In this document: positions 1-3,703 of the stretch, piece after piece
How positions within the stretch are numbered: position 1 is the stretch's first letter
How the letters are laid out: every line of letters begins with the position of its first letter
Notes under the pieces: model-generated
What the model was told of the DNA's origin: nothing
Database searches by the model: none
What the model saw: the letters and a program-made list of their open reading frames with translations, nothing else
Sequence record: X15639.1
Length of the DNA stretch: 3,703 nucleotides
DNA from: Escherichia phage P1
Reading direction: 5' to 3' (one strand)
Made by a program: the position numbers and the translations under genes

Positions 1-9
1 AATAAATTT
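1..9 (+). promoter_or_regulatory. Partial C1-type operator (Op51-like), truncated by the window edge
   Basis: The window opens with AATAAATTT, which equals the 3' nine bases of the 17-bp asymmetric P1 C1 operator consensus ATTGCTCTAATAAATTT (from memory). Its position upstream of the immI promoter fits, but a 9-mer AT-rich match could be chance. Confidence 0.3.
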
Positions 10-47
10 GTATTTTTAAGTCGCGAATGCTATCTTTTCGCATCATA

Positions 48-76
48 TTGACCTTTTAATCGTTCAGGCTTATAGT
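48..76 (+). promoter_or_regulatory. Sigma70-like promoter, candidate immI promoter driving c4-icd-ant
   Basis: TTGACC at 48-53 (5/6 to TTGACA), exact 17-bp spacer, TATAGT at 71-76 (5/6 to TATAAT), with an AT-rich stretch upstream. Predicted start near 83, ahead of the a1/b1 sites and c4. Confidence 0.45.
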
Positions 77-108
77 TCCACCGTCGTAGCAAATTCTGCG
101 ACCGGTTT

Positions 109-128
109 TGACAGCCTGAATGTTAGTG
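109..128 (+). promoter_or_regulatory. Upstream antisense target sites (a1/b1-like) for the c4 RNA
   Basis: TTGACAG at 109-115 and GTTAGTG at 122-128 are exact complements of CTGTCAA (246-252) and CACTAAC (233-239) in the c4 candidate. The same two motifs recur in the same order at 276-311. Confidence 0.45.
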
Positions 129-198
129 CGGACAACCGCAGATTTCCGATATTGCGGTATTTTTGTGTCCGTAAACCGCGTTACGCCCGAATTATGGT

Positions 199-270
199 GG
201 GGCGTGATGGGGAGGCTTCGGCCTGCTGGTTTCACTAACGCCAGTCTGTCAACCCTGTCACGTCCTGCCA
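199..270 (+). ncRNA. c4: c4-like antisense RNA (immI repressor RNA) with a tRNA-like acceptor end; boundaries approximate
   Basis: GGGGCGT at 199-205 can pair with ACGTCCT at 260-266 (7 bp including G-U pairs), followed by a single base and CCA at 268-270, resembling a tRNA acceptor stem, consistent with the RNase P processing reported for P1/P7 C4. Internal hairpins: AGGC-TTCG-GCCT at 213-224, and a stem 226-229/241-244 whose loop carries b' CACTAAC (233-239). a' CTGTCAA (246-252) follows. b' with flanks (228-240) is complementary over about 12-13 bp to 304-316, covering the icd Shine-Dalgarno. Confidence 0.5.
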
Positions 271-275
271 CCTGT

Positions 276-316
276 TTGACAGCGGGTAGCAGGTTGTTAA
301 ACCTGTTAGTGAGGCC
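276..316 (+). promoter_or_regulatory. Downstream antisense target sites (a2/b2-like) overlapping the icd ribosome-binding site
   Basis: TTGACAG at 276-282 (a2) and GTTAGTGAGGCC at 305-316 (b2). b2 contains the GAGG Shine-Dalgarno (311-314) located 8 nt before the ATG at 323, so c4 pairing would occlude ribosome binding. Confidence 0.5.
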
Positions 317-322
317 GTAACT

Positions 323-565
323 ATGGTTAATGCCAATCCTTGCACACGCCCAGAATTCATCTGGCGTTTCTATTCCTGTAAAAAACACCACTATCACTTC
401 GTTATCGCAGCAACTGAAGACGAAGCACGCTCTCAATTGCCTGATGGCCCTGCATTTTTACTGCCCGTTTTTCTACTAACTCGCGCAATTCACTTAGTTA
501 CTGGAACCTCCCCTTCTCTGCCGACGTTCAGGGGGGTTTATGAAAAAACCTCTCGTCACCCGTAA
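323..565 (+). CDS. icd: Icd-like small protein (80 aa), likely translationally coupled to ant
   Basis: ATG at 323 preceded by GAGG at 8-nt spacing. The ORF ends at 565, overlapping the ant start (540) by 26 nt in a different frame. Position between c4 and ant matches P1 immI order. No recognisable domain by eye; assignment is positional. Confidence 0.5.
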   Translation: MVNANPCTRPEFIWRFYSCKKHHYHFVIAATEDEARSQLPDGPAFLLPVFLLTRAIHLVTGTSPSLPTFRGVYEKTSRHP

Positions 566-1508
566 TGAAATAGCCGAAGCGATCGCTTTGCATACTGCCT
601 GTATGCCGACACGGGAGATCCCCGGCGCAATTGCTAACTATTTCATGATAACCAGGCGTTTTTATACCCGAACAGATAAGGCTGTGATCAACAGGCTACT
701 GATAGCCGAGATCAGGGATTATTTGATTGAACAAGGACGTCTACGTTACGCAACAGTGGCAGCAGAAATAAGAAAGGAGGCACATAGAATGACCGGTAAT
801 AATTTGAATGTTGAAAAAACAGCACCTGTTACGTCAGCTACGCCAGCACCAGCCGTGAATATCATCCCCAACACCGGAGACACAATCGACAGCCAAACAT
901 TGTTGAAGATGGTCAATGAGGCACGCAAGTTATGTGGAGAACCAGAGGTTAGAAACAATAAATTCATCGAAAAAATACTCGATGAACTTGAAGGTGAATT
1001 TTACACAAAAAGTGCAAAATCCCATGGCACAAGGGCTGGGCGCTCTTTTGAGGTCATCACCATGACCTACAAACAAGCCCTGCGAGTCGCCGCGCGCGAG
1101 TCAAAAGCGGTCCGCCGTTCGCTGATCGACAAACTGGAAGAATTGCAGCAGGCAAACTCCCCTGCCCCATCGATCCCCCAAACATTACCAGAAGCTCTAC
1201 GCCTGGCTGCCGAGTTGGCAGAACAGAAAATGCAGCTGGAACAACAGCTGGTGGCCGCAGCCCCTAAAGTAGATTTTGCCGACCGGGTATCAGTGGCTAA
1301 TGGAATCCTGATCGGGAACTTTGCAAAGGTCGTTGGACTTAAGCAAAACGCCCTTTTCTCATGGTTGCGCCAGAACGGCATTCTCATGGCTTTTGGTGCG
1401 CGCAAAAACGTACCGCGCCAACAGTACATCAACGCCGGGTATTTCACGGTGAAAGAAGTGGTGCTGGATGATGAAAATGGCTACCAGATACGGCTGACGC
1501 CCAATTAA
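540..1508 (+). CDS. ant: Antirepressor Ant1 (322 aa): N-terminal extension, Rha/AntA-like domain, ANT/KilAC C-terminal domain; C-terminus looks truncated by a frameshift
   Basis: ATG at 540 preceded by a G-run (531-536). Central region (around residues 115-200) resembles Rha/AntA-type phage regulatory domains. The C-terminal 111 aa (DNA 1173-1505) align at roughly 65% identity with the C-terminus of the downstream KilA-like protein. Pro/Ala/Thr-rich linkers separate the modules. Confidence 0.85.
   Translation: MKKPLVTRNEIAEAIALHTACMPTREIPGAIANYFMITRRFYTRTDKAVINRLLIAEIRDYLIEQGRLRYATVAAEIRKEAHRMTGNNLNVEKTAPVTSATPAPAVNIIPNTGDTIDSQTLLKMVNEARKLCGEPEVRNNKFIEKILDELEGEFYTKSAKSHGTRAGRSFEVITMTYKQALRVAARESKAVRRSLIDKLEELQQANSPAPSIPQTLPEALRLAAELAEQKMQLEQQLVAAAPKVDFADRVSVANGILIGNFAKVVGLKQNALFSWLRQNGILMAFGARKNVPRQQYINAGYFTVKEVVLDDENGYQIRLTPN
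789..1508 (+). CDS. ant: Ant2, in-frame internal initiation product of ant (239 aa as encoded)
   Basis: Perfect AAGGAGG at 774-780, 8 nt upstream of an in-frame ATG at 789. The product length (about 263 aa if the C-terminal frameshift is repaired) is close to the 266-aa KilA paralog. P1 ant is known to give nested Ant1/Ant2 products. Confidence 0.5.
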   Translation: MTGNNLNVEKTAPVTSATPAPAVNIIPNTGDTIDSQTLLKMVNEARKLCGEPEVRNNKFIEKILDELEGEFYTKSAKSHGTRAGRSFEVITMTYKQALRVAARESKAVRRSLIDKLEELQQANSPAPSIPQTLPEALRLAAELAEQKMQLEQQLVAAAPKVDFADRVSVANGILIGNFAKVVGLKQNALFSWLRQNGILMAFGARKNVPRQQYINAGYFTVKEVVLDDENGYQIRLTPN

Positions 1509-1594
1509 CGGGTAAAGGCCAGCAGTGGTTAACTCGCAAGCTACTTGATGCTGGTTTGTTAAAACCAGTAGCAATAGGTTAACAAAAGAAAAAA

Positions 1595-1620
1595 ACCTGC
1601 CAGCAAACTGGCAGGTTTCT
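1595..1620 (+). terminator. Rho-independent terminator downstream of ant
   Basis: Perfect 9-bp stem ACCTGCCAG (1595-1603) / CTGGCAGGT (1608-1616) with loop CAAA, followed by TTTCT. An A-run precedes the stem. Confidence 0.6.
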
Positions 1621-1660
1621 GAGCAGATCGTCCAACCCGATCTGGATCGGGTCAGAAAAA

Positions 1661-1677
1661 TTTGCTCTAATAAATTT
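1661..1677 (+). promoter_or_regulatory. C1 repressor operator-like site (Op53-like) upstream of kilA-repL
   Basis: TTTGCTCTAATAAATTT matches the C1 operator consensus ATTGCTCTAATAAATTT at 16 of 17 positions (consensus from memory), 70 bp upstream of the kilA ATG. TTGCTC within it could serve as the -35 of an overlapping promoter, but no convincing -10 was found. Confidence 0.55.
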
Positions 1678-1695
1678 CGTTTTCTAAGTGCAAAG

Positions 1696-1719
1696 AATCA
1701 CCATTTCGAGCTGGTGATT
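1696..1719. promoter_or_regulatory. Perfect 8-bp inverted repeat with 8-bp spacer in the kilA leader
   Basis: AATCACCA (1696-1703) and TGGTGATT (1712-1719), located between the Op53-like site and the kilA Shine-Dalgarno. Could be a protein-binding palindrome or a leader RNA hairpin. Confidence 0.3.
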
Positions 1720-1746
1720 GAAGGTTGATGCAAATTTGGAGAAAAA

Positions 1747-2547
1747 ATGCAACAAACATTCAATGCGGATATGAATATATCAAACCTTCATCAAAATGTC
1801 GATCCTTCAACCACTCTGCCCGTTATTTGTGGTGTTGAAATTACGACCGACCGCGCTGGCCGTTACAACCTTAATGCTCTACACAGAGCGAGCGGACTCG
1901 GTGCCCATAAAGCGCCAGCTCAATGGCTAAGAACGCTGTCAGCTAAACAGCTCATCGAAGAGCTTGAAAAAGAAACTATGCAGAATTGCATAGTTTCGTT
2001 CGAAGGCCGTGGCGGCGGCACTTTTGCCCATGAATTGCTCGCTGTGGAGTACGCAGGCTGGATTTCTCCCGCGTTTCGGCTGAAGGTAAACCAGACATTT
2101 ATCGACTATCGAACCGGAAGATTACAACCTGCTATTCCGCAGAGTCTCCCTGAAGCTCTCCGTTTGGCTGCCGACCTGGCAGAGCAAAAGCAACGGCTGG
2201 AGCAAAAAATGCTTATGGATGCACCTAAAGTCGAATTCGCTGAACGCGTTGCTACCGCCAGCGGGGTTCTAATCGGCAACTATGCCAAAGTGCTCGGCCT
2301 GGGCCAAAACTATCTCTTCACCTGGTTGCGTGATAACGGAATTCTGATCGCAACCGGTGAACGCAGGAACGTCCCCAAACAAGAATACATATCTCGTGGG
2401 TATTTCACCCTTAAAGAAACCGTGATCGATACAAGCAATGGAAGCAGGATTTCTTTCACGACTCGTATAACCGGCAAAGGTCAGCAGTGGCTGATGAAGC
2501 GATTGCTTGATGCTGGTGTGCTGGTACCTGTCGCGGCAACGCGCTAA
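1747..2547 (+). CDS. kilA: KilA-like protein (266 aa): KilA-N DNA-binding domain plus KilA-C/ANT C-terminal domain
   Basis: GGAG at 1738-1741, 5 nt before the ATG. Residues around 25-125 carry KilA-N hallmarks (YNLNALHRASG, PAQWLR, GRGGGTFAHELLAVEYAGWISPAFRLKV). The C-terminal 137 aa (DNA 2134-2544) is paralogous to the Ant C-terminus. Architecture matches phage P1 KilA. Confidence 0.88.
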   Translation: MQQTFNADMNISNLHQNVDPSTTLPVICGVEITTDRAGRYNLNALHRASGLGAHKAPAQWLRTLSAKQLIEELEKETMQNCIVSFEGRGGGTFAHELLAVEYAGWISPAFRLKVNQTFIDYRTGRLQPAIPQSLPEALRLAADLAEQKQRLEQKMLMDAPKVEFAERVATASGVLIGNYAKVLGLGQNYLFTWLRDNGILIATGERRNVPKQEYISRGYFTLKETVIDTSNGSRISFTTRITGKGQQWLMKRLLDAGVLVPVAATR

Positions 2548-2576
2548 CAGACGTAGTAAGAACCACCAGCATTGTA

Positions 2577-3422
2577 ATGCTGGCTAAAGTCACTTTCCTG
2601 AGCTGTATAACGATGAGCGATTTTACTTTTTCTGGCTATGAATTGGCCTGCTTTGTAACACACTCCGGTCTATCCCGTAGCGCCGGGCATATCCTGTCGC
2701 AATGTGCAAATCTCGCGGCAACAACCAGTGAATACTTCATTCACAAGCCTCACCGCCTGATCGCGGCAGAAACTGGTTATAGCCAATCAACCGTCGTTCG
2801 TGCATTCCGTGAAGCTGTAAACAAAGGAATTCTGTCTGTAGAGATTGTTATCGGCGATCACCGTGAACGTCGCGCTAACCTGTACCGGTTTACACCATCC
2901 TTTTTGGCCTTCGCACAACAAGCCAAAAATGCGCTGATAGAAAGCAAATTAAAGATCTCTTCAGCGGCAACCAAGGTTAAAGCTGTTCTCGCTAAGACAT
3001 TGGCTTTATTTAATTTTTTATCCACACCCCCATGTCAAAATGATACCCCCTCCCCCTGTCAGGATGACGTGGCAATAAAGAATAAGAAGTCACAAGTTAA
3101 AAAAACAAAAAGATCAGTTTCCGGCGGTGCCGGAACAACCAGCCTCAAAAAATTGACTTCATGGATCGCTAAGGCAAAAGCAAAGGCTGACAATCTGCGG
3201 TTATCCAAAAAACGCACTCAAAAACATGAGTTCAAGCAGAAAGTAGAGGCGGCTGCGCGGAAATATGCTTACCTGAAGAACAAGCGTTCGCCTGATATTG
3301 GCGGGATATCAAACTTCGATAACCTACCGCATTGCATGACGGTAAACGAAGCTCTTAATGCGGTTTTAGCCAAAAATAAAGATAACGAACAATGGGGTAT
3401 ACCGGCAGGATTCAGAGGGTAA
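2577..3422 (+). CDS. repL: RepL-like lytic replication protein (281 aa); alternative start at 2613 (269 aa)
   Basis: Long ORF directly after kilA, as in the P1 kilA-repL operon. Winged-helix-like segment (AAETGYSQSTVVRAFREAVNKGIL) and a Lys-rich basic C-terminal tail. No clear Shine-Dalgarno before either candidate ATG. Assignment rests on context and size, not on recognised sequence motifs. Confidence 0.7.
   Translation: MLAKVTFLSCITMSDFTFSGYELACFVTHSGLSRSAGHILSQCANLAATTSEYFIHKPHRLIAAETGYSQSTVVRAFREAVNKGILSVEIVIGDHRERRANLYRFTPSFLAFAQQAKNALIESKLKISSAATKVKAVLAKTLALFNFLSTPPCQNDTPSPCQDDVAIKNKKSQVKKTKRSVSGGAGTTSLKKLTSWIAKAKAKADNLRLSKKRTQKHEFKQKVEAAARKYAYLKNKRSPDIGGISNFDNLPHCMTVNEALNAVLAKNKDNEQWGIPAGFRG
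3001..3070. other. Candidate origin (oriL-like) inside repL: AT-rich tract, perfect DnaA box, imperfect direct repeats
   Basis: AT-rich stretch at 3004-3020. TTATCCACA at 3018-3026 is a perfect DnaA-box 9-mer. Imperfect direct repeats CCCCCATGTCAAAATGAT (3027-3044) and CCCCCTGTCAGGATGAC (3052-3068). The P1 lytic origin is reported to lie within repL (from memory). Confidence 0.35.
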
Positions 3423-3424
3423 TG

Positions 3425-3441
3425 AATTGCTCTAATTATAA
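3425..3441 (+). promoter_or_regulatory. Weak C1 operator-like site just after the repL stop
   Basis: ATTGCTCTAATTATAAC: the first 11 bases match the consensus left part ATTGCTCTAAT exactly, and the right part diverges (about 12 of 17 overall). Confidence 0.25.
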
Positions 3442-3464
3442 CCATGCATACTTTCAACACCTCT

Positions 3465-3509
3465 AGTTTGCCATGAGGCAAACTCATAGGTGTCCTGGTA
3501 AGAGGACAC
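3465..3509 (+). other. Two tandem perfect stem-loops downstream of repL, possible terminator or RNA processing structure
   Basis: AGTTTGCC (3465-3472) / GGCAAACT (3477-3484) with loop ATGA; GTGTCCT (3490-3496) / AGGACAC (3503-3509) with loop GGTAAG. No U-tract follows, so not a canonical intrinsic terminator. Confidence 0.3.
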
Positions 3510-3703
3510 TGTTGCCAAAACTGGACGCCCCATTATTGCAATTAATAAACAACTAACGGACAATTCTACCTAACAATAAGTGGAGTTAACATGTTGAACC
3601 GAAGAACATTTAATGTATTCTGCGATGAATCCTGTCACCTACTAAATAATTATATAATAAGGTCATGGTATTAAATACGCTTTAATATTCCGGTCTGACT
3701 CTT

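Follow-up and report, generated by a model that had tools for sequence, protein, structure and literature searches.

The window analysed here, that is the whole stretch of 3703 bases, matches phage P1 (NC_005856, 48148–51819) over positions 1–3672 with 99.8% identity in a megablast search of phage records, in which phage P7 matches with 95.8% identity. About 780 plasmid records, mostly of E. coli P1-like phage-plasmids, also match the window. A note in the P1 genome record assigns the same span (48148–51819) to the entry X15639 and describes it as '99 pct identical, 5 gaps'. The window is therefore most probably this older entry and comprises the P1 immI region and the lytic replicon, with c4, icd, ant1/2, kilA, repL and the beginning of rlfA. 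In the P1 genome record, annotations for the operator, both promoters, a1, b1, the C4 RNA, a2, b2, icd, ant1 and ant2 stand at the corresponding positions, the role of a1/b1 being marked as 'putative'. Features of the window are listed in Table 1.

Table 1. Features of the 3703-base window, with the evidence used to place them.
Feature	Position	Strand	Evidence
3′ half of C1 operator Oc4 (former Op51), cut by the window start	1–9	+	P1 record: locus 593–609 = window −7 to 9
Promoter P2c4 (former P51a)	7–36	+	P1 annotation; sequence identical to P1
Promoter P1c4 (former P51b), TTGACC-17-TATAGT	48–76	+	P1 annotation, consensus scan
Two c4-a1b1 leader hairpins, a1 in the second loop	83–118	+	Rfam RF03163
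a1 target site TTGACAG	108–114	+	Exact-string search, P1 annotation
b1 target site GTTAGTG	122–128 (P1 record: 122–129)	+	Exact-string search, P1 annotation
Terminator-like hairpin (135–158) with U-rich tail UAUUUUUGUGU, between b1 and c4	135–168	+	Fold
Mature C4 antisense RNA, 77 nt	196–272	+	P1 misc_RNA (locus 796–872), Rfam C4, fold
b′ recognition sequence CACTAAC (RNA CACUAAC), within 9-nt hairpin loop 231–239	233–239	+	String search, fold
a′ recognition sequence CTGTCAA (RNA CUGUCAA), coinciding with the 7 unpaired nucleotides of the fold	246–252	+	String search, fold
a2 target site TTGACAG	276–282	+	Exact-string search, P1 annotation
b2 target site GTTAGTGA, overlapping the icd Shine-Dalgarno GAGG (311–314)	305–312	+	String search, P1 annotation
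icd ORF as read in the window, 80 aa (true P1 icd 73 aa)	323–565	+	ORF, P1 comparison
ant1, 322 aa here (true P1 Ant1 347 aa, end 1582); ant2 start ATG 789	540–1508	+	ORF, P1 comparison
C1 operator TTTGCTCTAATAAATTT, before kilA (OrepL/Op53)	1661–1677		P1 annotation
C1 operator ATTGCTCTAATTATAAC, after repL (Orlf/Op55)	3426–3442		P1 annotation

Base-by-base comparison with P1 reveals no difference in positions 1–446 of the window, and positions 1–345, which include all six recognition sites described below, are 100% identical to P1 in the alignment. Within the c4 element, the window does not differ from the P1 immI operon (NC_005856, 48148–48691). Differences between the two are located downstream, where the window is without one C in icd and one C in ant and its 3′ end is degraded, as fits the older entry X15639. 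At about positions 444–447, the window reads CCC where P1 has CCCC, which shifts the frame of icd. The same change at positions 1496–1499 truncates ant1, and the lost C-terminus continues in the next frame to position 1582. Both missing C's are the kind of compression error that is typical of old sequence entries. Positions 3648–3703 also depart from P1, mostly by an A in place of a P1 G and by small indels, and the last 31 bases lie outside the megablast match; this divergent 3′ end seems to result from low sequence quality at the end of the entry and not from biology.

The window starts with AATAAATTT, which is the end of the C1 operator consensus ATTGCTCTAATAAATTT. Coordinates of the promoter P2c4 were obtained by subtracting 600 from the P1 locus positions 607–636 (−35 signal 607–613, promoter feature 608–636), and P1c4 was recovered independently by a consensus scan with 10 of 12 matches. 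The leader that follows the promoters is a member of the Rfam family c4-a1b1 (RF03163), which it matches at positions 70–122 with 51 bits, above the gathering score of 46.7 (gathering scores of the C4 and isrK families are 45 and 50, respectively). As in the family model, b1 follows directly on the 3′ side of the two hairpins. The published seed alignment of c4-a1b1 itself contains P1 48217–48269, corresponding to positions 70–122 of the window. An intramolecular hairpin between a1 and b1 appears in the minimum free energy (MFE) fold of P1; inspection by eye indicates that the P7 sequences would not form it, and it was given no weight.

Six short recognition sites form the core of the element. 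Exact-string search finds motif a (TTGACAG) and motif b (GTTAGTG) twice each and in the same order, as an earlier sequence-only reading of this DNA had noticed; only its start for the first copy of a, 109, has to be moved by one nucleotide to 108. The second copy of GTTAGTG is located at 305–311. Exact reverse complements of both motifs lie between the two copies and in reverse order, again in agreement with that reading, so that the sites follow one another along the strand as a1-b1 ... b′-a′ ... a2 ... b2. All six 7-mers are absent from the rest of the 3703-base window.

Repeats and complements of seven nucleotides might have arisen by chance, or be the relic of a duplication without any RNA–RNA function. 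We therefore compared the region with 5000 dinucleotide-preserving shuffles of positions 70–330. A single 7-mer present twice with its reverse complement between the copies is common by this measure (41 of the 5000 shuffles), but two such non-overlapping sets occurred in none of them. The chance explanation is further contradicted by the covariation of all six sites in relatives and by the location of b2 at or next to the Shine-Dalgarno sequence even where distant homologues have recognition sequences of their own, both of which are described below, and we consider it extremely improbable.

The region between b1 and a2 matches the Rfam C4 model (RF01695) with 68.8 bits (E = 1.6e-12), well over the gathering score of that family, and the match covers the full-length model (1–87) at positions 190–275 of the window. 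The MFE of the C4 RNA is −42 kcal/mol compared to a mean of −27.6 kcal/mol for shuffled sequences (z −4.55), and the centroid structure is the same as the MFE structure. The fold consists of a 17-bp closing stem, a hairpin capped by a UUCG tetraloop, a 6-bp hairpin whose 9-nt loop carries b′, and the 7-nt unpaired a′ on the 3′ side, which is the architecture of the C4 family. Folding of the region, which the sequence-only reading had put forward as a check, thus places b′ in a hairpin loop and leaves a′ unpaired. Cells of the C4 stems are paired in 99.8–100% of cases among 36 sequences (P1, P7 and 34 other distinct relatives). The C4 stem opens with the pair G196–C269, which is followed by ACC, and these bases are invariant in the 36 relatives. 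Such a 3′ end fits the reported cleavage of the C4 precursor by RNase P, an enzyme that acts on hairpin-like substrates with 3′ ends of this kind (PMC5499578, citing Hartmann et al. 1995).

The remaining hallmarks of the family are also present. Both a′ and b′ are complementary to the downstream sites a2 and b2, with b2 located at the ribosome-binding site of the next gene, and the RNA is positioned upstream of icd and the antirepressor gene in a C1-controlled operon, as seen from the ORFs and the P1 annotation. Comparison with the Rfam families C4 (RF01695) and c4-a1b1 (RF03163), which belong to clan CL00128, reveals no difference, P1 being a founding or seed sequence. The element is therefore almost certainly the P1 c4 antisense RNA together with its target sites upstream of icd/ant, which is long known and the type example of its family. 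The sequence-only reading had called it a c4-like antisense RNA; its assignment to c4 and its targets are borne out by Rfam and by the P1 annotation, whereas the qualifier 'c4-like' falls away, since positions 1–345 are P1 itself.

Pairing of b′ with the translation start of icd is more extensive than the 7-mers themselves. A duplex of 12–13 bp between b′ with its flanks and positions 304–316, covering the GAGG of icd, had been proposed from the sequence, and this estimate is essentially right. Positions 227–240 can pair with 304–317 over 14 contiguous base pairs if G-U pairs are allowed (10 Watson-Crick and 4 G-U pairs), and the Watson-Crick core is formed by 232–239 with 305–312. The pairing spans GAGG at 311–314, which precedes the icd ATG at 323 by 8 nt. 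Base pairs of b′ beyond 231–239 would require opening of a stem, because positions 225–230 and 240–245 form the stem of the b′ hairpin in free C4.

Relatives of the element were collected by scanning IMG/VR with a 20-mer from the apical hairpin of C4, which yielded 120 loci. Together with the window, P1 and P7, the complete IMG/VR loci make up a set of 115 complete regions. These P1-like regions contain 12 combinations of recognition sequences, built from two a-types and seven b-types, and in every one of the 12 combinations a1 and a2 are both the reverse complement of a′ while b1 and b2 are both the reverse complement of b′. A third a-type, TTAGTCG, is present in locus L063, where a1 and a2 match the reverse complement of a′, and b2 matches b′ save for one bulged base (by eye). 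Phage D6 has the P1 a-type combined with b = ACTTACG and b′ = CGTAAGT.

In the formal count of covariation, which used the 36 distinct sequences, the b′–b2 pairing has 99.7% of its cells paired, with 6 of 8 pairs changed on both sides. The other three pairings (a′–a2, b1–b′ and a1–a′) all have 100% of their cells paired, with two-sided changes in 2 of 7, 6 of 7 and 2 of 7 pairs, respectively. When the partners were slid by 1–3 columns as a control, pairing drops to 32–53%. Predicted duplex energies follow the same division: for b′–b2, cognate partners have values of about −11 to −12 kcal/mol and non-cognate partners of about −2 to −7 kcal/mol, and for a′–a2 the corresponding values are about −9 kcal/mol and −4 to −7 kcal/mol. 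Loss of the complementarities in related elements had been named in advance as an observation that would speak against the antisense reading; what is found instead is their conservation throughout the 115 regions and in nearly every cell of the 36 sequences.

Phage P7 provides the clearest single case. Its c4 (AF503408) has the same architecture and the same C4 fold as that of P1, and the region is about 96% identical overall. Two bases differ between P7 and P1 in a′ and two in b′, and these changes are mirrored at a1, a2, b1 and b2, giving a = TTAGCAG in P7 (TTGACAG in P1) and b = GATTGTG (GTTAGTG in P1). Duplexes across the two types are predicted to be 2–7 kcal/mol weaker, which corresponds to the classical heteroimmunity of P1 and P7. 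These differences agree with the expectation that P1 and P7 specificity resides in a few bases of a′/b′.

The same organization extends beyond close relatives. In 27 divergent C4 loci from viral contigs, matches of b of at least 7 nt are found in 74–85% compared to 4–7% in sense-strand controls, and the arrangement of the sites seen in P1 is kept in most of these loci. In homologues from Achromobacter and Undibacterium, the layout is kept and the recognition sequences are unrelated to those of P1, with b2 abutting the Shine-Dalgarno sequence.

The diversity of these types raises the question whether the window itself carries a new specificity, with a′/b′ unlike those of both P1 and P7. Variant types do occur among the relatives (at least three a-types and at least seven b-types). 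However, motif a reads TTGACAG and motif b reads GTTAGTG at all sites of the window, and a′ and b′ are their exact complements. This is the P1 type, which is common to 16 of the 115 regions, and positions 1–345 equal P1 at every base including the six sites. From this identity it follows that the immunity type is exactly that of P1. A new variant has practically no probability, and the earlier suggestion that the sequences may be a variant is to be dropped.

Three parts of the mechanism, namely RNase P processing, the trans-acting repression and the dependence of ant on icd, are taken here from the literature. Lysogeny requires ant to be off; the c4-icd-ant operon is under repression by C1, and C4 is needed in addition for this repression to be complete (PMC8198154). 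Synthesis of Ant is repressed in trans by C4 (PMC8546580). C4 is described as a substrate of RNase P in a paper that cites Hartmann et al. 1995 for it (PMC5499578), and processing to a 77-nt C4 RNA is named in the title of Citron & Schuster 1992, as given in a reference list. The scheme of a′/b′ with a1b1 and a2b2 is described in the supplement of Weinberg 2010, which cites Citron & Schuster 1990. The CI RNA of satellite phage P4 has been placed beside C4 among the hairpin-like substrates of RNase P (PMC5499578). According to that paper, CI resembles C4 in being a short immunity RNA that is cut from a longer precursor, although it belongs to a different element.

Taken with our observations on the window, these reports make the following mechanism almost certain, and nothing that we observed contradicts it. 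Transcription would start from P51a and P51b, both under the control of the C1 repressor, and the transcript would carry in this order the leader with a1 and b1, then c4, a2, b2, icd and ant1/ant2. The 77-nt C4 RNA would be excised from the transcript of its own operon, with its 5′ end generated by RNase P, and would act in trans by pairing of a′ with a2 and of b′ with b2. Because the b′–b2 duplex would cover the icd Shine-Dalgarno sequence, icd would stay untranslated; because expression of ant depends on translation of icd, Ant would not be made and the prophage would keep its C1 repression. A report of 1992 by Biere, Citron and Schuster is said to show that the block of icd translation also lowers ant transcription via polarity. 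The specificity behind P1/P7 heteroimmunity would then lie in a few bases of a′, b′ and their targets.

There is no novelty in this main finding, which concerns the reference phage and the reference specificity. Antisense RNAs of phage immunity have their founding example in the P1 element, which has been characterised since 1990 and is present in Rfam and in the P1 annotation. The value of the case is that of a positive control, in which a reading made from the letters alone recovered the correct element, its targets and its mechanism.

A less familiar feature is located in the leader, between b1 and c4. The hairpin at 135–158 (ACCGCAG...UUGCGGU), which is followed by a U-rich tail, has a predicted energy of −8.5 kcal/mol and a long, partly paired loop. 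The P1 record contains no such feature and the Weinberg 2010 supplement makes no mention of one. A standard terminator scan does not call this hairpin either, because its loop exceeds the 8-nt limit of the scan. With a looser custom scan, for which the opposite strand served as control, a comparable hairpin and T-run with differing, compensating stems was found in 29 of 34 distinct C4 loci and in 9 of 34 on the opposite strand.

The region also has a partial match to the Rfam family isrK (RF01394), the model of which includes a terminator. This match extends over positions 83–164 and so takes in the leader hairpin, but its 35.1 bits are below the gathering score, and the region is thus not a member of that family. 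IsrK of the Salmonella prophage Gifsy-1 likewise has two leader hairpins and a terminator hairpin and is located upstream of an antirepressor-like gene (PMC4825925). It is a terminated short RNA, and part of the transcripts read through the terminator (PMC4825925). In contrast to P1, IsrK and orf45 of Gifsy-1 are not separated by a c4 gene, and IsrK acts as an activator of translation that pairs with sequences of orf45 (PMC4825925). For this reason, we rejected the IsrK mechanism as such for P1.

These features allow a refinement of the antisense reading, in which a1/b1 would be more than spare copies. Transcription of the leader would stop at a conserved intrinsic terminator, and either the short, IsrK-like a1-b1 RNA released there would titrate C4 as a decoy, or binding of C4 at a1/b1 would tune read-through into c4-icd-ant. 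Such a role would agree with the covariation of a1/b1 with a′/b′, which is as strict as that of a2/b2, and with the hairpin and U-run that follow b1 in most C4 loci. The partial isrK match and the partial read-through known for IsrK in Gifsy-1 point in the same direction. Competition of a1/b1 with a2/b2 was moreover proposed by Citron & Schuster in 1990, as related in the supplement of Weinberg 2010. However, the P1 hairpin is modest and the standard scan is silent on it, the opposite-strand control gave hits as well, the isrK score stays under its threshold, and the mechanism in Gifsy-1 is not transferable as it stands. We consider a decoy or read-through role possible but rather unlikely.

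Judged from the sequence, P1 may produce a short a1-b1 RNA; in the secondary literature on P1 that we searched, we found no description of it. If true, a released a1-b1 RNA or a tuned read-through would give a physical basis to the competition idea of 1990. It is somewhat less likely still that an IsrK-type a1-b1 decoy RNA or C4-tuned read-through at a conserved leader terminator, together with the near-free assortment of a- and b-types described below, are undescribed traits of the family. In E. coli and Salmonella, P1-like phage-plasmids commonly carry resistance genes. The observations on a/b-types and on the leader might be of modest use for work on superinfection immunity in these phage-plasmids.

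In the predicted fold, the leader hairpin and its U-run are enclosed by an outer helix, GCGGACA/UGUCCGU, formed by positions 128–134 with 166–172. Similar outer helices of different sequence are seen by eye around the hairpin in L063, L105, L135 and L136.

Among the IMG/VR loci, compared over the region corresponding to positions 95–326 of the window, five b-types are paired with both a-types in spite of the interleaved order of the sites (there are three a-types if L063 is counted). In the divergent C4 set, loop and bulge sequences are mixed in a similar way. Near-free assortment of a and b across interleaved sites would suggest either repeated co-conversion of several sites or selection for new immunity types. 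In one IMG/VR locus (L043, positions 4689–4920 on the minus strand), b1 (ACGAATG) and b′ (CATTCGT) are of one type, whereas b2 (GTTAGTG) is of another, so that its C4 fits b1 but does not fit b2 at the icd ribosome-binding sequence. The region is located at the end of a 4.9-kb contig, and an assembly chimera is a possible cause of the mismatch.

A scan of genome contigs with the same apical 20-mer of C4 returned 23 stretches. Seventeen of these were discarded, as they have no C4-like context and are apparently coding (by eye). The C4-like stretches are L125, L131 and L145, which are P1-like, and L129, L135 and L136, which are distant. The contig of L131 (JAFAFU010000019.1, 2867 bp) comes from a metagenome-assembled genome labelled 'Bacillota' and contains a P1-like c4 region, which agrees with P1-like elements of enterobacteria along the part that was compared; its assignment to Bacillota is probably an artefact of binning or contamination. 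The three distant loci (L129 and L136 from Undibacterium, L135 from Achromobacter) have exactly the same 20-nt apical hairpin and stem sequence as P1 and entirely different a and b sequences, and they preserve the succession of a1/b1, terminator-like hairpin, c4 and b2 at the Shine-Dalgarno sequence.
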